From IMG/VR virus record IMGVR_UViG_3300008262_000052: DNA of 17,945 nucleotides, one strand, 5' to 3'. This document shows, piece by piece, positions 4,489-13,584 of the stretch. The stretch is from a virus. Lineage: Duplodnaviria; Heunggongvirae; Uroviricota; Caudoviricetes. The notes beneath the pieces were generated by a model. The model saw nothing but the letters and a program-made list of their open reading frames with translations. It did not search any database and was not told the origin of the DNA. The position numbers were made by a program, and so were the translations under genes. Numbering within the stretch: the stretch's first letter is position 1; the number at the start of each line of letters is the position of its first letter.

Positions 4489-7400
4489 ATGAAGATAGCA
4501 ATCATAGACATCATTGGTATACCCTATGATGGCACAACAGTATACAAACAAGGACTGGGTGGCTCAGAAAGTGCTGTTACTTTCGTCAGCGAACAACTGG
4601 CCAAACTGGGTTTTGGTGTAACAGTATTCAACAACTGTGATTCAGAAGACACACAGCCTGGCACATACAACGGCGTTGTCTACAGACCCACAAGAGATCT
4701 AGCCAAAGACTGGGAATTTGATATTGTAATCAGTTCAAGAACTGTAATACCTTTCACCGATCCCAAAGACTATCCACAGATGAGAGACAACAGAGCAGTA
4801 CCATTTCAACAGATTGATCTCTACAACAGAATACTCAGCAAAGCCAAAATGAGAATACTGTGGATGCACGACACATTCTGTTTAGGAGATTCGCTGATAG
4901 AAAAACTTGCAACTGAAAACAGAATCACAGACATCTTTACACTGAGCGACTGGCATCTAACCTATATTACCAACTGTGATCACGGTGCAAGACGCAACTT
5001 CGAAGTGCTTAAACCCAAAGTTTTTATAACTAGAAACGGCGTTAACATCTACGATACGCAGACGGACCTAAAAAGCAAAGACCCTGATCTGTTTGTATAC
5101 AACGCCAGTGTTACCAAAGGCATGGTACCCTTGGTTAAAGAAATTTGGCCCAGAGTCAAACAACAGTTGCCCAATGCTAAACTAAAAATAATAGGCGGAT
5201 ACTATAGATTTGGCAAAAGCAGTGCTCCTGATCAACAGGAACAGGATTGGCATGTTATGGCTAACGATACTGTAAACCAACAGTTGGACATAGAGTTTAC
5301 AGGTGTCATATCACAAAAGTCTATTGCACACATACTTCAAAAATCTAGCTTTATGATCTATCCAAGTGCGTTTCCAGAAACGTTTGGTATCAGTTCAGTG
5401 GAAAGCCTCTGCTACAACACACCGTTGATAACCTGCAGATTCGGAGCACTGGAAGAAATAGCACTAGCCGAAGCCTGCTACGTGATTGATTATTCTGTAG
5501 TGCCAAACAATCTGTTTCCTAATATCGACTCGCCACAACAGATTGAAAAGTTTGTTGCTACAACTGTACAGGCATATCGTGACCGATATCTACATCAACA
5601 AAAACAAAACTATTGTAATATAATAAAAGACGTAGTAGGTTGGGACACAGTGGCTCTACAGTGGAAACAGCATTTCTATTACAAATTAAAACAGCATCTA
5701 CCTGTGGATGAATACAGAGCAGTGCAAAAAATAAATCAACGCATACACAAGATATGGAAAAGACGCTATACCAATCCTTGTGAAATGTCGCACACAGCCA
5801 GTTATCCACAGCAGAAGATAGAGATTGTAAGTCCTTTCTATAATGCAGAACACTACTTAGAAAATCACATACTCAGTGTTGCTGCACAGGACTATGACAA
5901 CTGGGAACACACGCTGATTGATGACTGTTCTACAGATCAAAGCGTTGCTGTAATAGAACAGACTATTGCATCTTTGCCTGAACATATACAAAGCAAGTTC
6001 AAAATTGTAAAGAGAACTGGTCACTACGGTGCAGTGAGAAATCAAATTGAAACTGTTAGAAGTTTAGAAACAGACAGCATTGTCATGCTACTGGATGGCG
6101 ATGACAGTTTAACCAATGACAACAGCATATTTCACTACTACAACGATCGATACCTAGACGGAGCAGAGTTTACCTATGGCAGTTGTTGGAGCATAGCAGA
6201 CAACATTCCTTTGATAGCACAGGAATATCCACAGCACATCAAAGAAACACGAGCATATAGAACACACCATTTCAACTGGATACTGCCCTATACACATCTA
6301 AGAACATTTAGAAAAAGTCTAATAGACAGCGTAGATGACACACTGTTCAAAGATAACAAGGGCGAATGGTACGGCGCCGGTGGCGATGGCAGTGTATTCT
6401 ATGCATTGATAGAGCAGGCTGATCCTAACAGTGTACAGGCAGTACAAGACATAATGGTAAACTACAATGACGTTAATCCACTTAATGATTACAAAGTAAA
6501 CAGCACAGAACAGAACAAAAATGCAAGAGAGATTGTCAACATGAATCAACAAAAAAAAAAGATCCTGATAGCGATACCCACAGCCAAGTATATAGAACCG
6601 GAAACCTTCAAGAGTATATACGATCTGGACGTTCCAGAAGGCTATCAGACAGTGTTTCAATACTTCTATGGTTATAACATAGATCAAATACGAAATCTAA
6701 TTGCAGACTGGGTAGTCAAAGGATATGACTATCTACTGAGTGTAGACAGCGACATTGTACTACCAAGAGACACACTGAGAAGATTTTTATCACATGACGT
6801 TGACATGGTCAGCGGCTTGTACATACAACGCAAGCCAGGGCAGCACACTTTAGAAATATACGAAAACAATGACCGAGGCGGTGTTAGCAACATACCTTAC
6901 GGTAAAATCAAAGACCGCGGACTTGTGCCCATTAACGGCTGTGGCTTTGGATGTGTACTAATTAAAAAGTCTGTGTTTCAAGCAATACCCTATCCACACT
7001 TTGTTTATCACAGCGCACTGAATCACGCCAATACTATTAGTGAAGATGTAGACTTCTGTGCCAAAGCACTTAAGAAAGGATTTAAGATCTACGCCGACAC
7101 TGCTATTAAGTGTAGACACATAGGTCAGGGCGAGTTTACCGTAGACGATTCAATACCTGCTATAGACAACAGTATAGAACTACGATTGAGAGATCTAAGT
7201 TCGCAGAGATTGTTACCAAAACCGCATGTAGATTATTTGCAACAATTAAAGGATGGAGGATTTACTCCAAAAACTATTTACGATGTAGGTGCATGTGTAC
7301 TGCATTGGACCAACGAAGCAAAACAGATTTGGCCAGACAGTACTGTTATAGCATTTGAAGCCATGCCCAGTTGTGAGTTTCTTTACAAAGAAAACAACAT

Positions 7401-7839
7401 GATGTATCATGTTGGCGTACTAAGTGATGAGAGTGGCAAAACTGTAGAGTTCTATCAGAATGATTGGCACCCTGGCGGCAACAGTTATTATATTGAAAAC
7501 AGTGACATCAATGCCAACAGTGCATTTTACTTTAATGAAACACACAAGCGCACTTATCAAACAGTAACACTGGATGCAGTGCATAGATTAAAACAGTTGC
7601 CCGAGCCTGAACTGTTAAAAATGGATGTACAGGGCGCAGAACTCGATGTACTGCGTGGTGCAGCAGAAGTGTTAGAAACTGTAGAACATGTTATACTAGA
7701 ACTGCAAAGCGTTGAATATAATAAAGGTGCGCCTCTAAGAGAAACTGTGTTTGAATATATGCACAGCATAGGATTTGAGTTGGTAGCACAGTTTACAAAC
7801 TATGGCCCCGATGGTGACTATCACTTTAAGCGTAGATAA
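4489..7839 (+). CDS. Multidomain glycosyltransferase-methyltransferase: GT4 (GT-B) + GT2 + GT2-like + FkbM-family methyltransferase
   Basis: GT4 E-x7-E motif YPSAFPETFGISSVE. GT2 motifs IVSPFYNA..IDDCSTD and LDGDD from about aa 441. Second GT-A domain ILIAIPT..SVDSD..GCGFGCVLI..SEDVDFC from about aa 689. FkbM motifs IYDVGA and LKMDVQGAELDVLRG from about aa 927. Confidence 0.88.
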   Translation: MKIAIIDIIGIPYDGTTVYKQGLGGSESAVTFVSEQLAKLGFGVTVFNNCDSEDTQPGTYNGVVYRPTRDLAKDWEFDIVISSRTVIPFTDPKDYPQMRDNRAVPFQQIDLYNRILSKAKMRILWMHDTFCLGDSLIEKLATENRITDIFTLSDWHLTYITNCDHGARRNFEVLKPKVFITRNGVNIYDTQTDLKSKDPDLFVYNASVTKGMVPLVKEIWPRVKQQLPNAKLKIIGGYYRFGKSSAPDQQEQDWHVMANDTVNQQLDIEFTGVISQKSIAHILQKSSFMIYPSAFPETFGISSVESLCYNTPLITCRFGALEEIALAEACYVIDYSVVPNNLFPNIDSPQQIEKFVATTVQAYRDRYLHQQKQNYCNIIKDVVGWDTVALQWKQHFYYKLKQHLPVDEYRAVQKINQRIHKIWKRRYTNPCEMSHTASYPQQKIEIVSPFYNAEHYLENHILSVAAQDYDNWEHTLIDDCSTDQSVAVIEQTIASLPEHIQSKFKIVKRTGHYGAVRNQIETVRSLETDSIVMLLDGDDSLTNDNSIFHYYNDRYLDGAEFTYGSCWSIADNIPLIAQEYPQHIKETRAYRTHHFNWILPYTHLRTFRKSLIDSVDDTLFKDNKGEWYGAGGDGSVFYALIEQADPNSVQAVQDIMVNYNDVNPLNDYKVNSTEQNKNAREIVNMNQQKKKILIAIPTAKYIEPETFKSIYDLDVPEGYQTVFQYFYGYNIDQIRNLIADWVVKGYDYLLSVDSDIVLPRDTLRRFLSHDVDMVSGLYIQRKPGQHTLEIYENNDRGGVSNIPYGKIKDRGLVPINGCGFGCVLIKKSVFQAIPYPHFVYHSALNHANTISEDVDFCAKALKKGFKIYADTAIKCRHIGQGEFTVDDSIPAIDNSIELRLRDLSSQRLLPKPHVDYLQQLKDGGFTPKTIYDVGACVLHWTNEAKQIWPDSTVIAFEAMPSCEFLYKENNMMYHVGVLSDESGKTVEFYQNDWHPGGNSYYIENSDINANSAFYFNETHKRTYQTVTLDAVHRLKQLPEPELLKMDVQGAELDVLRGAAEVLETVEHVILELQSVEYNKGAPLRETVFEYMHSIGFELVAQFTNYGPDGDYHFKRR

Positions 7840-7846
7840 AGATTAA

Positions 7847-7900
7847 CCCCTGTTAGCGTTACACTCGATCTAAACAAGTGTGTGTTTTTGCTAACAGGGG
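7847..7900. terminator. Extended intergenic hairpin, probable terminator or processing structure
   Basis: CCCCTGTTAGC (7847-7857) pairs with GCTAACAGGGG (7890-7900); inner ACACT/AGTGT stem; lies between convergent genes. Confidence 0.5.
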
Positions 7901-7924
7901 CTGCTTTTGATTAATATAATAAAC

Positions 7925-7944
7925 GGGCTATGCCCTCTTTTTTA
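7925..7944. terminator. Short GC hairpin with flanking T/A tracts, possibly bidirectional terminator
   Basis: GGGC-TAT-GCCC followed by TCTTTTTT on the plus strand and by GTTTATT on the minus strand. Confidence 0.5.
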
Positions 7945-7962
7945 TAAGATTAAAAATATAGT

Positions 7963-8271
7963 TTATTTAGTGTCAGTCTTACCGTTTACAAAGTTATAAA
8001 ACTTTTCTGCCGCAGCCAATACTTCGTCGGCACCCGGTACTTTTGGCATTTCTACTTTGGTAACAACTTCTTTACCATCTTTGGCAACTGATGCTTCGAA
8101 GGCACCTAACCTAGCGTGGAAGTCTTGCCAAACTTGGCCTTGCGCCATTTCTAAAACTTGGGCTCGAATTTCGTATCCATTTTTATTAAAAGTAACTTTG
8201 GGCATTGCTGCCTTTAGTTGTTCGCCGAATGTCGCAGCGGCTTCCTGCATTTGTTTTGCGTAATCGTTCAT
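7963..8271 (-). CDS. Hypothetical helical protein (102 aa; KNGYEIR...EKFYNFV)
   Basis: AGGAG SD, its own sigma70-like promoter, and an amphipathic helical pattern. Confidence 0.8.
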   Translation of the reverse strand: MNDYAKQMQEAAATFGEQLKAAMPKVTFNKNGYEIRAQVLEMAQGQVWQDFHARLGAFEASVAKDGKEVVTKVEMPKVPGADEVLAAAEKFYNFVNGKTDTK

Positions 8272-8306
8272 TTGTTTTCTCCTGTGTCTGTGTTTGCTAT
8301 ATTGTT

Positions 8307-8335
8307 AATATAGTTGATTATTTATTGTTTGTCAA
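8307..8335 (-). promoter_or_regulatory. Sigma70-type promoter TTGACA-N17-TATATT with TAAATA in the spacer
   Basis: The minus strand reads TTGACA aacaataaataatcaac TATATT, upstream of the ORF starting at 8271. Confidence 0.75.
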
Positions 8336-8390
8336 CGGGTTTAGATTCTTTTTTTGAAGTATCTTCGCCGTAGTATGGAATATGACTCAT
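8322..8390 (-). CDS. Micro-ORF, 22 aa (MSHIPYYGEDTSKKESKPVDKQ)
   Basis: ATGA overlap with the upstream ORF stop; last member of the coupled chain. Confidence 0.45.
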   Translation of the reverse strand: MSHIPYYGEDTSKKESKPVDKQ

Positions 8391-8506
8391 AGATTTTCTC
8401 CTAGCATGATCTTACGAGCAAGATCATGATGTCCTTGACGTGCTAGTTCGGCAGCGGCTCTAGCACGACCTGTGCGTTCAAATAAGTTAATAATGCGTTG
8501 CCACAT
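8387..8506 (-). CDS. Small protein, 39 aa (MWQRIINLFERTGRARAAAELARQGHHDLARKIMLGENL)
   Basis: TAATG overlap upstream and ATGA overlap downstream; Arg/Ala-rich helical pattern. Confidence 0.7.
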   Translation of the reverse strand: MWQRIINLFERTGRARAAAELARQGHHDLARKIMLGENL

Positions 8507-8568
8507 TACTTGCCGCCTGCTTTCTTTTCGTTCTTGTCGCGAAGATAACTGTGATCTGGGTCTAACAT
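8506..8568 (-). CDS. Micro-ORF, 20 aa (MLDPDHSYLRDKNEKKAGGK)
   Basis: Bridges two ORFs exactly, with TAATG overlaps at both ends. Confidence 0.55.
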   Translation of the reverse strand: MLDPDHSYLRDKNEKKAGGK

Positions 8569-8759
8569 TATATCCATCCTTTTAAATTTTGATTTGCTCT
8601 TAGTTGCCAAGGTGCTTCACCTCTGCTGATTGAACGCTGTCTGCGTTCTAGGTCTTCTAAACTGATGCTGTCTGCTAGATACTCTTCTACAAATTGTTTT
8701 TCAGTGCGAGTATTGAGCAAATCTTTGAACATGTTTTTAAGCATTACTGTACCCAACAT
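8568..8759 (-). CDS. Small protein, 63 aa, DUF3563-like
   Basis: EEYLADSISLEDLERRQR resembles the DUF3563 pattern (YLA-x5-DLERR); TAATG overlaps. Confidence 0.65.
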   Translation of the reverse strand: MLGTVMLKNMFKDLLNTRTEKQFVEEYLADSISLEDLERRQRSISRGEAPWQLRANQNLKGWI

Positions 8760-8917
8760 TATCGTATTCCATATGCTGCTTCACTGGCAATAACTGGAAT
8801 CATGTCTGGCGAAAGTCCAAGATCGCGTAACTGATGATAGTTAAGCGAATTTAACTCTCTTAGAGTTTGCTTATAGGTTTTATGACGAACAAGCCAAGTT
8901 TTAAATTTTGCGATCAT
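8759..8917 (-). CDS. DUF1127 (YjiS-like) small protein, 52 aa
   Basis: Manual translation MIAKFKTWLVRHKTYKQTLRELNSLNYHQLRDLGLSPDMIPVIASEAAYGIR. It has the DUF1127 core T-x-RELxxL-x3-LxDLGL-x4-I. Absent from the ORF track because of its size. Confidence 0.85.
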   Translation of the reverse strand: MIAKFKTWLVRHKTYKQTLRELNSLNYHQLRDLGLSPDMIPVIASEAAYGIR

Positions 8918-9081
8918 TCTGTTGCTCCCATACTAGGAGCCACGCCAAATTCTTTCATATGATGATAGGCAAATGTAGAATCTTTTTTGTATTCTATACG
9001 AGCCCAAGTTTCTAGGTCTTTGTCTGCTGGACGTGGAGCAAGGCTACGAACCCAACCGTCAAATAGTTTTAGTGTTAACAT
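8914..9081 (-). CDS. Small protein, 55 aa (MLTLKLFDGWVRSLAPRPADKDLETWARIEYKKDSTFAYHHMKEFGVAPSMGATE)
   Basis: AGGAAGAG SD; ATGA overlap with the DUF1127 gene; first gene of the chain. Confidence 0.7.
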   Translation of the reverse strand: MLTLKLFDGWVRSLAPRPADKDLETWARIEYKKDSTFAYHHMKEFGVAPSMGATE

Positions 9082-9111
9082 TTTTCTCTTCCTGTGTTTC
9101 TGTATCTTACA

Positions 9112-9140
9112 TATTTAGTGCTAATACTTGACAAAATCAA
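9112..9140 (-). promoter_or_regulatory. Candidate promoter for the small-ORF operon (TTGATT-N17-TAAATA; TAAATA also matches the late motif)
   Basis: Read from the minus strand upstream of 9081; the -10 is non-canonical for sigma70. Confidence 0.45.
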
Positions 9141-9156
9141 GCGTGATTTGTGCAAT
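9128..9156 (+). promoter_or_regulatory. Sigma70-like promoter TTGACA-N17-TGCAAT directed toward pstS
   Basis: Perfect -35, 17-nt spacer and a 4/6 match at -10. Confidence 0.5.
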
Positions 9157-9161
9157 TCCGA

Positions 9162-9178
9162 TATGCAGTTCGTGCATA
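9162..9178. promoter_or_regulatory. Palindromic operator TATGCA-N5-TGCATA containing a LysR-type T-N11-A
   Basis: Dyad symmetry, with T9164-N11-A9176. Confidence 0.4.
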
Positions 9179-9187
9179 CCTAGAAAT

Positions 9188-9205
9188 ATGAAATTTTTGT
9201 AACAA
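9188..9205 (-). promoter_or_regulatory. Second, inverted Pho-box-like site TTGTTAC-AAAA-ATTTCAT
   Basis: 7-4-7 layout with 11-bp period, about 13/18 to the E. coli-type consensus; no -10 at the canonical distance. Confidence 0.45.
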
Positions 9206-9212
9206 CAGTAGA

Positions 9213-9246
9213 ATTTCATAAATCTGTTACAATTTTTTGTTATACT
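9213..9246 (+). promoter_or_regulatory. Pho box promoter of pstS: ATTTCATAAATCTGTTAC-N10-TATACT
   Basis: 15/18 match to CTGTCATA(A/T)A(T/A)CTGT(C/A)A(C/T), located exactly 10 nt upstream of a TATACT -10, which is the canonical PhoB-activated geometry. Confidence 0.8.
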
Positions 9247-9307
9247 AACGACTATATAGTTTTGTATAGGAGAGACCTATGCACTATACGCACAGAAGGA
9301 GACATAT

Positions 9308-10270
9308 ATGCGTTCATTTGCTATCGCTGCCGTTGCAGCCCTAGTACTATCCACACCAGCACTTGCAAGAGACAATGTTCAAGTTACTGGTTCATCTACA
9401 GTTCTACCATATGCAACCATTGTTGCTGAAGCATTTGGAGAAAATTTTGAATTTCCGTCGCCAGTAGTTGAAGGCGGTGGTTCAGGCGCTGGCCGTAAGA
9501 AATTATGCGAAGGCGTTGGTGAAAACACTGTTGACATTGCAAACAGCAGTTCAAAGATGAAAGAAGAAGAATGGGCCAAGTGCGAAGAAGTTGTTGGTCC
9601 TATTACAGAAGTTAGAATTGGTTACGATGGCATTGTATTTGCATCTAACATTGATCAACTCAACATTGATGACTTGACTGTAGTTCAACTGTACACTGCA
9701 CTACACGCAGACAGCACTGCAAAACTATGGAGTGATGTTGATCCTGCTCTACCAGCGGTAGAGATTCTTGCTTATATTCCAGGTACCAAGCACGGCACTA
9801 GAGAAGTGTTTGATGTAAAGGTTATGGAAGCAGGTTGTAAAGAAGCACTAGGTGTTGAAAAACTAGACGACGATCAGAAGAAGGCTTGTGTTAAGGTTCG
9901 CACTGATGGCGCAGCAATTGATATCGACGGCGACTACACTGAGACACTTGCACGTCTTGCAGCGAATAATACAGCACTGGGTGTGTTTGGTCTTAGTTTC
10001 TATCAGAACAACACTGACAAGCTAGAAGTTGCTACAGTAAGCGGCGTATTCCCCAGCGTAGAAACAATCTCAAGTGGCGATTATCCAATCAGCCGTCCGC
10101 TTTACTTCTATGTCAAGGATGCACACCTTGAAGTAATCCCAGGACTGAAAGAATACGTACAATTCTTCGTAAGTGATGAAATGGCAGGCTCAGACGGTGC
10201 TCTAGCACAATACGGTCTTGTTCCAGATCCAGAACTTGCAGCAACTCAAGCAGAGTGGGCTAACAAGTAA
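9308..10270 (+). CDS. pstS: Phosphate ABC transporter periplasmic binding protein (auxiliary metabolic gene)
   Basis: Signal peptide ending ALA-RD; motifs GSSTVLP, GGGSGAG, DIANSS, HGTREVF and YPISRPLYFY; AAGGAGA SD. Confidence 0.93.
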   Translation: MRSFAIAAVAALVLSTPALARDNVQVTGSSTVLPYATIVAEAFGENFEFPSPVVEGGGSGAGRKKLCEGVGENTVDIANSSSKMKEEEWAKCEEVVGPITEVRIGYDGIVFASNIDQLNIDDLTVVQLYTALHADSTAKLWSDVDPALPAVEILAYIPGTKHGTREVFDVKVMEAGCKEALGVEKLDDDQKKACVKVRTDGAAIDIDGDYTETLARLAANNTALGVFGLSFYQNNTDKLEVATVSGVFPSVETISSGDYPISRPLYFYVKDAHLEVIPGLKEYVQFFVSDEMAGSDGALAQYGLVPDPELAATQAEWANK

Positions 10271-10280
10271 TCGAAATACT

Positions 10281-10308
10281 CAAGGAGCAGGATTAATCCT
10301 GCTCCTTG
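10281..10308. terminator. Bidirectional terminator (perfect 28-bp palindrome)
   Basis: CAAGGAGCAGGA-TTAA-TCCTGCTCCTTG lies between the convergent pstS and lipase genes. Confidence 0.7.
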
Positions 10309-11057
10309 TTCCATGCTTCTATATTGGCAATATAGTTTGACATTGAGTGATCTGAAAAGTTATCAATACTACCTTTCTTAATACCCATCCACATACCGCG
10401 CCAACGATCCTTTACACGCTGCCATCCTGTGTTCTTTCGTACCTGTCCATAGGCGTTCATATAGTGTTCTGTACCGTGATGACGATAGCCCATGATATTT
10501 AATGGTACACGAGTAACAACATCATTGTTGTTTACCCAACGGTGATGTTCGACACCAAGATGAACAACATAACCCTTCCAACCTACACGCGGTGAACCAA
10601 ATGTGTAGAGTTCTACAGGATCAGGTAGTTCCTCGCAATACAAACAACGGCTGGCCATAATGGTTGCCATTGCAGCACCAAGACTGTGTCCAGTGAACCA
10701 AAGCGATTGCTCGGCACGTTTGGCCGATAGGTCTTCGACAACCATAGGCCAAAGATCGTCAACTTCTCGTTTGAATCCTCTGTGTACACGACTGACTGTT
10801 TCTGCTATAACAGGTATTGCTTTTAAATCTGCTTTGATGTCGTTGAAGCAAGTGGGTTCTGTACCTCTACATGCAATAACTAGATCATTTTTGTTTTGGA
10901 AACGGTAGGCTTGTGCGCCGTCTTTATTGTAAAATTCTACAGTAGTGAAGCCCAATTCTTTGGCTTGCTTTTTTACTTCTTTGAGATTGCCATATGCAAT
11001 GGCAGATAGTCTAGCGAATAAGAGGCTACGCTCTTTAAAATTTAGATCCTTTATCAT
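10293..11057 (-). CDS. Lipase class 3 (alpha/beta hydrolase)
   Basis: GHSLG nucleophile elbow, CRGT oxyanion region, VHRGF, DVV Asp and DHSM His. ATG at 11057 with a GAGGG SD is the likelier start than 11072. Confidence 0.88.
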   Translation of the reverse strand: MIKDLNFKERSLLFARLSAIAYGNLKEVKKQAKELGFTTVEFYNKDGAQAYRFQNKNDLVIACRGTEPTCFNDIKADLKAIPVIAETVSRVHRGFKREVDDLWPMVVEDLSAKRAEQSLWFTGHSLGAAMATIMASRCLYCEELPDPVELYTFGSPRVGWKGYVVHLGVEHHRWVNNNDVVTRVPLNIMGYRHHGTEHYMNAYGQVRKNTGWQRVKDRWRGMWMGIKKGSIDNFSDHSMSNYIANIEAWNKEQD

Positions 11058-11337
11058 TTTTTTTGCCCTCAAGTTGATCTAGACGCTGTTCAATTGCGTC
11101 AATTTTAGCTGTTATTTTTGGATATTTTTTTCGCCATGCGTCTTCTGGTTGTTCTAACCATTTTAATCCCCAGTGTTCTACTAGATAATCCACAATACGA
11201 TCAAAGTGTGCATAACCCCACAATCCGATTCTAGTAGTGCTTAGATATGCAAGTACTATTGCACCTATAATACTACCAGCAATACTTGTGTAAATCCACA
11301 ATGTATCGCCAAACATTTTATCAATTATTTCCCACAT
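11035..11337 (-). CDS. Membrane protein with N-terminal TM helix and C-terminal coiled coil (100 aa)
   Basis: Hydrophobic stretch LWIYTSIAGSIIGAIVLAYL; GAGGG SD; TATAAATA upstream. Confidence 0.75.
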   Translation of the reverse strand: MWEIIDKMFGDTLWIYTSIAGSIIGAIVLAYLSTTRIGLWGYAHFDRIVDYLVEHWGLKWLEQPEDAWRKKYPKITAKIDAIEQRLDQLEGKKNDKGSKF

Positions 11338-11359
11338 AGTTTGCCCTCACTTATCTAGA

Positions 11360-11367
11360 TATTTATA
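11360..11367 (-). promoter_or_regulatory. T4-type late promoter TATAAATA
   Basis: Exact T4 late consensus, 22 nt upstream of the ATG at 11337. Confidence 0.7.
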
Positions 11368-11379
11368 TGCAAAGGTAAC

Positions 11380-11385
11380 TAAATA
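11380..11385 (+). promoter_or_regulatory. Late promoter motif TAAATA
   Basis: Upstream of 11403. The same motif recurs before genes at 13632, 14548, 14864 and 16523. Confidence 0.6.
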
Positions 11386-11402
11386 CTACAAGGATCGATA
11401 AA

Positions 11403-11657
11403 ATGAAAAAAAGAACTCGTGGTATTTTAGAAGAACTATCCAGTGTAGGCCGCAAGGACTATGCTGATGCATTTATTCAGACAACTGGCAATAATATTAT
11501 AGAATCAGCAATCAATTTATTAACAAAAATACACGAGAGTTATCCAGAAGACACTGCCGTAGATCTAGAACGTAGATTTATCAATGCTATTCGCAGTGCC
11601 AATCCACAAAAGTTCAAGACCGGAGTGGACAAGATCATCGAAAGTAAAAAGAAATGA
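11403..11657 (+). CDS. Hypothetical helical protein (84 aa)
   Basis: AAGGA SD; ATGA overlap with the next gene. Confidence 0.8.
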   Translation: MKKRTRGILEELSSVGRKDYADAFIQTTGNNIIESAINLLTKIHESYPEDTAVDLERRFINAIRSANPQKFKTGVDKIIESKKK

Positions 11658-12397
11658 AACTCAACGAAGGTGGCAATGTTTTTGACGGAACATCAGACTT
11701 TGATCATGCAGTTATTCCGCAACTAACAAAGGCCGTTAACTCAGTTCTAGACAATATAAAGATCAAAGGTTATCCAATTGGTTCTGGAGCCACACCAACA
11801 CCTGGAAAGAAGAGTGGCGATTTAGATATTATTGTAGATCAGGATGCTGTAATGACAGCATTGGGCACAGACAAGCCTCTACCCACCAAAAAAGCACTAG
11901 AAGACTTATTCAAACGTGCAGGTTTCGAAACAAAAGTTATTGGCATAAACGTACACGTAAAAGTTCCGGCTGGCAATACTGCTCATCAAGTTGACTTGAT
12001 GTTAGTACCCAACAGCGAAGCAGTTAGTAAATTTCACATACACAATATTCCTAAAGGCAGTCCGTATAAAGGATTGAACAAGCAGTTAGCAATGGCTAAA
12101 TTGGCCAAAGAAAAAGACATGAAGTGGAGTGCGTTTAAGGGGTTGCTAAACAGAGCAGATGATAGTATAGTATCAACAGACATAGATGAAATTGCCAAGA
12201 TACTGATAGGACCAAATGCATCTGCAAAAGACCTAGGTTCAGTAGAAGCCATTGTTGCAGCACTTGGTCCTAACGGAGATCAATTCTTATCTGGTCTAAG
12301 AGCCGATCCAGCATGGAAAGAAGTACAGCCTACGGAAACTTTAGATGACAAGCACCTTAATAGAATTAAGGAATTAACGGCAAGGTTGATGCAATGA
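11654..12397 (+). CDS. Pol-beta superfamily nucleotidyltransferase
   Basis: GS...GDLDIIVD motif (GSGATPTPGKKSGDLDIIVD) and a third acidic residue in QVDLM. Confidence 0.75.
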   Translation: MKLNEGGNVFDGTSDFDHAVIPQLTKAVNSVLDNIKIKGYPIGSGATPTPGKKSGDLDIIVDQDAVMTALGTDKPLPTKKALEDLFKRAGFETKVIGINVHVKVPAGNTAHQVDLMLVPNSEAVSKFHIHNIPKGSPYKGLNKQLAMAKLAKEKDMKWSAFKGLLNRADDSIVSTDIDEIAKILIGPNASAKDLGSVEAIVAALGPNGDQFLSGLRADPAWKEVQPTETLDDKHLNRIKELTARLMQ

Positions 12398-13584
12398 GAT
12401 ATCAAGAGATAGTAACAGAAGCGTGGAGCCAAAAGTATAAACGCAGCATCGATTGCAGCAACCCAAAAGGTTTTAGTCAACGTGCTCATTGTGCTGGAAG
12501 AAAGAAAAACGAAAGTATCAACGAAGAAGCCAAGGTTGGTAGAGAATATCAACACTTGGAAGATCTTGTATTTGTAGATGGTGCTGCTGGTGCAATAGAA
12601 GCAGCAGACATACTGGATCGCATGGCTGGCGGCACTGAATCTATTTCTATCAAGTGGGACGGCAATCCTACTGTCTACTTTGGTAGAGAGCCGGACGGAA
12701 CATTTGTATTAACAGGCAAGAACGGCTGGGGACGCAATCAAAGCACCAGCCCAGAAGACCTTGCAAACTTTATTAAAAGCACAGGCAAAGGCGAAGACTG
12801 GAGAGAACAGTTTGGCAATGACATGGCGGAGATATTCCGAACTGTACAAGCAAGTTTTCCCAAGAACTTCGAAGGATACTTGTTTGGAGACTTACTGTAT
12901 CATCCAGGCAAACCAGTACAAAAAACAGAACAAGGCTACACATTTACCCCTAACAAAGTTACCTACACCGTTGACCCTAATAGCGAAATCGGCAAGCGAA
13001 TCGGCGCTAGTAAGATTGGTGTAGTGGTGCATAGCAAATACTCTGCATTTGGACAGAAGGATGGTACTCCTATAGAGGATGTATCAAACCTAAACAGTCG
13101 AGATGTGGTTGTTTTAGGACAGACTTACGTAACTCACCAGCCCAAGATTGACAACAGCGAAACTGATAGTATTAGAAAGTTTGCAAAAGCAAACAGCAGA
13201 ATCATTGACAGTTTCCTAGCACCGCAGGCTGGATTGAGTGATCTTAAAAACATCATCTACACTTTTGTTAATCAAATGGCAAAAGCAAAACAACTGAATC
13301 AAGTTAATCCAAACGGCTTTTTCAATTGGCTCAAAACCAGCAAGATAAGTCAACCCAAGCAACTCAAGATATTTGATATGCACAAAAACAATGCTGACGG
13401 ATTGACTGCTATCTTTAAATTGGTAGGTAGAATTCAAGCAGCAAAGAATCATTTGATTGATCAACTGGATTCTGCTCCTGCTGATGTACGAGCATCAACT
13501 GGTGATGAAGCAGGTGGCGAAGGCTATGTATCAACTGGTAGTAAGGTTAAGTTGGTTCCAAGACATCGCTGGACACCAAACTGA
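12394..13584 (+). CDS. KxDG ligase-like/covalent nucleotidyltransferase protein (recalled as DUF6267-like), with an N-terminal basic Cys cassette
   Basis: HLEDL, SIKWDGNP, GDLLY and C-terminal GEGYV..KVKLVPR motifs. Confidence 0.6.
   Translation: MRYQEIVTEAWSQKYKRSIDCSNPKGFSQRAHCAGRKKNESINEEAKVGREYQHLEDLVFVDGAAGAIEAADILDRMAGGTESISIKWDGNPTVYFGREPDGTFVLTGKNGWGRNQSTSPEDLANFIKSTGKGEDWREQFGNDMAEIFRTVQASFPKNFEGYLFGDLLYHPGKPVQKTEQGYTFTPNKVTYTVDPNSEIGKRIGASKIGVVVHSKYSAFGQKDGTPIEDVSNLNSRDVVVLGQTYVTHQPKIDNSETDSIRKFAKANSRIIDSFLAPQAGLSDLKNIIYTFVNQMAKAKQLNQVNPNGFFNWLKTSKISQPKQLKIFDMHKNNADGLTAIFKLVGRIQAAKNHLIDQLDSAPADVRASTGDEAGGEGYVSTGSKVKLVPRHRWTPN

Follow-up and report, generated by a model that had tools for sequence, protein, structure and literature searches.

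Small proteins of the DUF1127 family (PF06568) occur widely, and whether they act by binding RNA or by binding sensor kinases is a matter of dispute. CcaF1 of Rhodobacter/Cereibacter sphaeroides (RSP_6037) binds many RNAs, alters their turnover and has an influence on RNase E-dependent processing; it can dispense with its first 21 residues, and a natural short form of 50 amino acids (aa) is active (PMC8034643). The DUF1127 proteins of Agrobacterium bind the sensor kinase PhoR, and the Pho regulon rises when they are lost; in an Agrobacterium triple mutant CcaF1 brings repression of pstS back to normal, an effect ascribed to PhoR (PMC12501420). Salmonella YjiS shows no association with RNA (PMC11707872). 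On the phage side, pstS genes with Pho boxes are established for cyanophages (PMC10976474, PMC3037559). Both types of gene are found in a 17,945-nucleotide (nt) stretch of phage DNA, IMG/VR record IMGVR_UViG_3300008262_000052, which is analyzed here and in its entirety is termed the window. In it, pstS and an operon of very small genes that includes a DUF1127 gene are transcribed away from a shared spacer. An earlier, sequence-only reading had proposed a phosphate-signalling module in which the phage uses the host Pho regulon for pstS and encodes, as DUF1127, a modulator of the host sensor kinase, i.e., a feedback circuit. The literature that it cited, on DUF1127-PhoR binding (PMC12501420) and on CcaF1-RNA binding (PMC8034643), holds. 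The comparisons presented here point to a different organization, namely that the locus probably consists of two self-contained transcription units which came to stand back to back through insertion of pstS.

The pstS gene is real, with a match to profile PF12849 (PBP_like_2) of 175 bits; its TIGR02136 score of 146.5 bits is below the subfamily cut-off of 206.6. The window PstS is 62–69% identical to PstS of Paracoccaceae, and these together with other Alphaproteobacteria provide the nearest cellular sequences (62–69% identity). Copies with 59–96% identity are found on 60 IMG/VR viral contigs. Upstream of pstS is a Pho box, ATTTCATAAATCTGTTAC, at positions 9213–9230 of the plus strand, where 15 of 18 positions agree with CTGTCATAWAWCTGTCAY. 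A scan of both strands of the 17.9-kb window with the E. coli Pho box, allowing up to three mismatches, gives this site as the sole match (0.15 expected). A weight matrix made from 52 alphaproteobacterial pstS promoter sites also ranks it first, at 18.5 bits, and the runner-up has 11.2 bits. In PhoB-dependent promoters the 18-nt Pho box replaces the -35 element and lies about 10 nt upstream of the -10. The same architecture of box, 4-nt spacer and -10 distance is present at pstS, with a gap of 10 nt between the 3' edge of the box and the sequence TATACT (positions 9241–9246). Paracoccaceae and other alphaproteobacterial pstS promoters have the form CTGTCAT-N4-CTGTTAC(-N4-CTGTCAC), approximately 100 nt upstream of the start.

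A box with at least 14 of 18 matching positions is found in 20 of 54 scorable phage pstS upstream regions vs 1.3% of background 250-nt windows, and the pattern TCA.A.A..TGT.ACA is invariant in nine phage pstS upstream regions. Alignment of loci that have unrelated left neighbours shows the Pho box to be the only block kept upstream of pstS. Since the box accompanies pstS across unrelated neighbours, pstS appears to move as a cassette with its own PhoB-type promoter. The conservation of the box, its Paracoccaceae form and its enrichment support the earlier proposal that pstS uses the host Pho regulon; the gene is most likely under the control of host PhoB and induced on phosphate starvation. 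At the other end of the gene is a hairpin (positions 10281–10308) with a z score of -5.3, and none of 200 shuffled sequences folds equally well. The arrangement resembles that of cyanophage pstS (PMC10976474, PMC3037559), which is likewise phage-borne, has a host-type Pho box upstream and is expected to be induced in phosphate-starved hosts. It differs in the proteobacterial type of box (CTGTCAT-N4-CTGTTAC) and the alphaproteobacterial origin of the gene, in the phage, a large non-cyanobacterial T4-like or jumbo phage, and in that pstS changes position together with its promoter. A class-3 lipase gene accompanies pstS in L010/L012, L013, L016 and L061, and operon loci that lack pstS do not have it; this may be a second auxiliary gene of the inserted block, with a role related to phosphorus or lipids.

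Pho boxes in the plural had been proposed for the spacer. The one strong box stands, but the second-best site (positions 9188–9205), about 70 nt from the operon -10, has 11.2 bits compared to 10.8 for the best chance matches elsewhere and is not conserved in L012, L013 or L016. Pho control as a general feature of the operon was considered and rejected, as this site is at noise level and is not conserved.

Linkage of pstS to the operon is a minority condition and is inconsistent in form. The operon is within 4 kb of pstS at approximately 7 of 60 related phage pstS loci (6 contigs). The two are divergent in the window, L012, L013, L016 and L061 and tandem in L011/L063, L014 and L015. From the operon side, flanking sequence of up to 10 kb was surveyed at 23 loci and contains DUF6267 at 18 of them and pstS at 3, so that the DUF6267 module and not pstS is the regular neighbour. 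In L005–L009 the operon is directly divergent from orf84, orf247 and DUF6267 (positions 11403–13584 in the window), and in the window this junction is interrupted by an insertion of pstS, the lipase gene and orf100. On longer contigs the spacing between the two genes can be 12–17 kb or > 100 kb; DUF1127 is found on 4 of 10 long pstS contigs and is missing from one complete 195-kb pstS genome. The operon is present without pstS in L001–L009 and L171–L173, and none of five further operon contigs (up to 137 kb) carries pstS. Phages Melnitz (Methylophilales), phiM12 and Phosso (Sinorhizobium) and CRP-738 (Roseobacter) encode PF06568 proteins as does the window, but they differ from it in having no PstS-family gene. 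In Mosig the reverse holds, with pstS present and DUF1127 absent. Each of the genes is frequent in this group of phages, and nothing shows that they are retained jointly.

The operon has the order orf55, DUF1127, DUF3563, (orf34), orf39, orf102 and runs on the minus strand from position 9081 down to 7963. The divergent control region of about 225 nt in the sequence-only reading corresponds to a non-coding spacer of 226 nt (positions 9082–9307), but the gene that borders it is orf55 and not DUF1127. The 3' end of orf55 overlaps the DUF1127 start via ATGA, and the DUF3563 start overlaps the DUF1127 stop via TAATG (positions 8757–8761). With orf55 next to the spacer and joined to DUF1127 by this overlap, DUF1127 is the second gene of an operon and not the divergent partner of pstS. 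Gene order is the same in L001–L016, L153, L154 and L183–L194. Metagenomes contain 16 close homologues of the DUF1127 protein. Close homologues (67–98% identity) all lie in the order orf55, DUF1127, DUF3563 and reading frames of about 38 and 103 aa. Codon-position patterns support coding for orf55, DUF1127, DUF3563, orf39 and orf102, e.g., differences at the three positions are 90:89:187 in orf55, 24:18:59 in orf39 and 15:12:34 in orf102, an excess at the third position. The orf34 frame is open and 56–79% identical in nine relatives, with an ambiguous signal (74:56:82). Among the other genes, orf39 is 65–97% conserved in relatives and weakly matches phrog_2093, and orf102 is 57–81% identical at the equivalent position and has no Pfam or PHROG match.

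The 100–150 nt upstream of orf55 are conserved in all close relatives, whether or not pstS is adjacent. This block contains a palindrome (positions 9162–9178), a AAATCACGCT/TTTGTCA block and TAAATAT, a -10-like element. The palindrome is conserved in L001, L004, L005, L009, L011, L014, L015, L183 and L190. No relative has a Pho box facing the operon, the best upstream scores (10–13 of 18) being those of background. A GC-rich stem-loop is also present between the -10-like element and the orf55 start in L010, L013, L016, L001, L005, L011 and L014; its core is TGCTGCA-AG-TGCAGCA or a variant, and the window lacks it at approximately positions 9085–9105, where about 33 nt are deleted. L171–L181 and L185–L188 have a different type of conserved upstream region, about 40–140 nt upstream of the DUF1127 unit. 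It displays GCTATAACATAACCGAATACCG, a hairpin, TGTGTTATAAT (an extended -10) and CTATAAATA (T4-late-like), which suggests early plus late expression in those phages.

These properties are brought together in the proposal of two units. The first would be a mobile auxiliary pstS with Pho box, -10, ribosome-binding site, signal-peptide gene and hairpin. Gene and promoter would have been acquired from an alphaproteobacterial (Paracoccaceae-like) pstS, and host PhoB would switch the phage gene on under phosphate starvation. The second would be a conserved phage operon with its own promoter and a palindromic operator-like site, and without a Pho box. The DUF1127 part of this operon would represent a short copy of host CcaF1-type proteins that seizes or competes for their partners, of which RNA and the sensor kinase PhoR are the published ones. 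On this view, whatever the operon did to phosphate signalling would be one of its possible outputs and not a circuit built together with pstS.

The small proteins themselves show a conserved association. DUF3563 matches profile PF12086 with 29.8 bits (cut-off 26.9). In L152, DUF1127 and DUF3563 are within a single 113-aa open reading frame (ORF), and the fused DUF1127-DUF3563 form comprises 43 clusters with 51–100% identity, most of which contain both Pfam domains. The fused protein is colinear with the two proteins of the window, DUF3563 matching its C-terminal half. In T4-like phages the fused gene is placed after the DUF6267 module, as in the split form, with no pstS within 8 kb. Because the two are translationally coupled here and fused in many T4-like relatives, DUF1127 and DUF3563 seem to amount to a single protein in two parts. 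With a profile of orf55, 79 small-protein clusters are retrieved at E ≤ 1e-3. Three distant orf55 relatives were inspected and all three adjoin a DUF1127 gene and an orf39 homologue; orf39 is homologous to the third gene of these triads (BLASTP E 1e-14 and 3e-8). The conserved association is orf55, DUF1127 (with DUF3563) and orf39. Searches with orf55 gave no match in Pfam, NCBIfam or PHROG and only sub-threshold leads in Protein Atlas; NCBIfam had no match for any of the small operon proteins. The protein was not found in 401 alphaproteobacterial genomes and probably represents a new small-protein family, and phage-type DUF3563 is present in just 1 of 301 such genomes. A host operon as the source of the cassette was also considered, and rejected since in five Paracoccaceae genomes DUF3563 is not beside DUF1127 and orf55 was not found.

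An uncontrolled complex prediction for DUF1127 with DUF3563 has a score of 0.00, which weighs neither for nor against binding. The AlphaFold2 model of a fused homologue (P0017) is all-helical, with a pLDDT (predicted local distance difference test) of 75 and a pTM (predicted template modelling score) of 0.37, and Foldseek shows no match to it in the PDB at E ≤ 0.001. At positions 1274–1596 of L196, from a 1.4-Mb alphaproteobacterial genome with 34% GC, is a bacterial DUF3563 gene (PF12086 E 1e-7) with a small ORF directly 5' of it that is weakly similar to orf55 (BLASTP E 3e-4 over 28 residues); part of the module possibly has a cellular relative in this pair. In the distant triads, the longer DUF1127 proteins (L200 456–686 and L203 812–1051) end in N-x-N-[LI]-[KR]-G-[WF]-[VI], a tail shared by phage DUF3563 (NQNLKGWI, window positions 8568–8590). 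This common tail may be a C-terminal docking motif. No paper on phage DUF1127 was found in the literature, nor one that mentions DUF3563, and the papers searched do not discuss a function for the DUF1127 genes of Melnitz, phiM12, Phosso and CRP-738. The DUF1127-DUF3563 fusion and the association with orf55 and orf39 appear to be undescribed.

The profile check bears out the DUF1127 gene, with 38.6 bits to PF06568 (cut-off 23.3). The D-I/L-G-L core motif of the family (PMC11707872) is present as DLGL at residues 32–35; D32 and G34 are invariant and L33 nearly so in 39 phage sequences. A tblastn search of GenBank phages with the 52-aa protein gives no match at E ≤ 0.01, and the fused query does reach cultured phages. 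Paracoccaceae genomes have 5–7 DUF1127 paralogs apiece. The phage protein is 48–55% identical to paralogs that end in EAAYGK (L164–L167, E 1e-13 to 1e-10). It matches less well a fifth paralog without this ending (L161, E 9e-10) and does not match the WNDARVTR class. One member of the EAAYGK class has the small RNA (sRNA) CcsR1 on its 3' side and is therefore a CcaF1 orthologue. The DLGL core and an EAAYG C-terminus are common to the phage protein, CcaF1 and its Paracoccaceae orthologues (CIN1 loci), and the phage protein has the length of the active 50-aa short form of CcaF1 (PMC8034643). Unlike the CcaF1/CIN1 locus, the phage gene has no CcsR sRNAs downstream, encodes approximately 8% arginine as opposed to 10–14% in the CcaF1-type paralogs examined, and is part of a phage operon where it is coupled or fused to DUF3563. 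The PhoR-binding proteins SDP1-3 of Agrobacterium tumefaciens and YjiS of E. coli share Pfam family and size class with the phage protein, and CcaF1, its nearest characterized relative, can replace SDP1-3 (PMC12501420). SDP1-3 and YjiS damp the Pho regulon, whereas the phage gene is without Pho-linked regulation and is not consistently linked to pstS.

Of the mechanisms considered, the most likely one is that the phage DUF1127 is a copy of a host CcaF1-type protein and acts on the partners of that protein. Each individual partner is less certain: PhoR is a conceivable though rather unlikely main target, and RNA is an unlikely one. For a protein that is mainly a CcaF1-like RNA binder, altering how host or phage transcripts are processed via RNase E or how stable they are, the closest cellular relatives are of the appropriate type, one with CcsR1 downstream. 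CcaF1 itself binds many RNAs and changes their turnover, its 50-aa form being active (PMC8034643), and in most relatives the operon leader has a conserved stem-loop at its 5' end. However, an Rfam scan of positions 7800–9400 detects no family at E ≤ 1 and hence no CcsR or cuckoo RNA, while the positive control L167 shows CcsR1 at 73 bits. The CcaF1-type paralogs richest in arginine have about twice the arginine content of the phage protein, and YjiS of Salmonella does not associate with RNA (PMC11707872). This explanation is considered doubtful.

Equally doubtful is an operon unrelated to the host partners of DUF1127, i.e., phage-specific small proteins, e.g., for assembly, membrane or anti-defence functions, in which the DUF1127 fold would serve a different contact, mainly to orf55, DUF3563 and orf39. 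The near absence of orf55 (0 of 401) and phage-type DUF3563 (1 of 301) from alphaproteobacterial genomes is in its favor, as are conservation of the cluster as a set, the T4-late-like CTATAAATA upstream of the fused type and the low charge of the DUF1127 part. Across the entire domain the protein is 50% identical to one specific class of host paralogs and keeps DLGL and EAAYG, which argues against it and suggests that surface features have been retained.

A dedicated phosphate-signalling module, in which DUF1127 would bind host PhoR and feed back on the Pho-box-driven pstS, is improbable. In its favor, six or seven contigs show the genes adjacent, in two arrangements, and DUF1127 is on 4 of 10 long pstS contigs; the shared spacer contains both of the best Pho-like sites of the window, and the DUF1127 proteins of four species, CcaF1 included, act on pstS through PhoR (PMC12501420). 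Against it stand the few linked loci from either side, the many operons and the cultured DUF1127 phages without pstS, the pstS phages (Mosig and the 195-kb genome) without DUF1127, and the separate promoter blocks of the two sides with no Pho box toward the operon. The published effect of DUF1127 proteins is in addition a brake on pst expression. A helper of a Pho-driven pstS would be expected to have the opposite sign, unless the phage protein is a decoy, and the brake argues against a simple feedback loop. The low arginine content and the lack of a cuckoo RNA in the Rfam scan likewise weigh against this simple model. Such a decoy, with the coupled or fused DUF1127-DUF3563 docking on PhoR or another kinase and DUF3563 blocking the phosphatase switch, is a speculative and improbable variant.

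Several observations weigh against the two-unit proposal. Some phages hold both genes on one contig, 0.2 to > 100 kb apart, and a looser functional tie of pstS and DUF1127 is possible. The second-best Pho-like site is also inside the spacer and faces the operon. The closest PstS and DUF1127 relatives point to Paracoccaceae as host, yet the GC content of the phage is 40%. Only 4 of 52 residues (8%) in the window DUF1127 are arginine, and phage homologues have 4–11% with net charges of +1 to +5. The family mean is approximately 14% (PMC12501420), so that the window protein is not arginine-rich as is the family; CcaF1-type paralogs have 10–14%, with 14% in two of the four examined. This low arginine content and charge weaken the case for binding to the same acidic partners. 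In addition, the case for the promoters, the operator and control by PhoB is sequence-based throughout.

The features of the locus are listed in Table 1. The window is identified as phage DNA by a collagen-like tail fibre, homologues of virion proteins and the DUF6267 gene, and relatives encode UvsX, gp32 and a gp41-like helicase. A DNA search with positions 7900–11400 found no match among GenBank phages. Just upstream of the small-protein operon is a plus-strand ORF of 1116 aa (positions 4489–7839) with GT1, GT2 and FkbM-methyltransferase domains, and glycosyltransferase-rich regions are likewise found downstream of the fused DUF1127-DUF3563 gene in relatives. Positions 2–1471 of the plus strand encode a tail-fibre-like protein with collagen repeats that is truncated by the window start. 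The sole exact T4-late-type motif in the window, TATAAATA, is on the minus strand at positions 11360–11367, about 22 nt upstream of orf100 (positions 11035–11337).

Table 1. Positions of genes and predicted signals at the pstS/small-protein locus of the window
Feature	Positions	Strand	Basis
orf102, last operon gene, familyless	7963–8271	-	Kept in relatives; third-position excess
orf39, small protein with GRARAAAEL motif	8387–8506	-	Conserved in relatives; codon-position signal
orf34, possible small gene	8506–8610	-	Overlaps 3' end of DUF3563; frame open in relatives
DUF3563 small protein, 63 aa	8568–8759	-	PF12086, E 6.1e-7
DUF1127 small protein, 52 aa, CcaF1-like, without N-terminal extension	8759–8917	-	PF06568, E 8.8e-10
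orf55, first operon gene, motif W-A-R-x-E-Y...A-Y	8914–9081	-	79 representative clusters; codon-position signal
TAAATAT, -10-like element of putative operon promoter	9111–9117	-	Within block conserved upstream of orf55
Palindrome TATGCA-N5-TGCATA, candidate operon operator	9162–9178		Conserved upstream of operon in relatives
Weak second Pho-box-like site, facing operon	9188–9205	-	11.2 bits; 13/18
Pho box, two 7-nt direct repeats 11 nt apart	9213–9230	+	Consensus and matrix match
TATACT, -10 hexamer of predicted pstS promoter	9241–9246	+	Read from sequence
pstS, periplasmic phosphate-binding protein, signal peptide	9308–10270	+	PF12849, E 2.6e-51
12-bp hairpin 3' of pstS, overlapping 3' end of lipase gene	10281–10308		Delta G -21.4 kcal/mol
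Class-3 lipase/esterase gene, convergent with pstS	10293–11072	-	PF01764, E 5.8e-20; phrog_21992, E 1.6e-27

The adjacency of two phosphate-linked genes in a single genome is not in itself evidence of a circuit. What the pstS unit would extend is the cyanophage type of host Pho control, Pho box included, to large phages of alphaproteobacteria-like hosts. If the decoy variant were true, the Pho regulon and phage pstS would be locked on during infection at any phosphate level, and this would be the first known case of a small phage protein that reprograms a two-component sensor of the host. In a family whose function is disputed, a conserved phage DUF1127, often fused to DUF3563 and with orf55 and orf39 nearby, points to physical partners and offers compact constructs. 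The operon of tiny proteins is itself new and testable.

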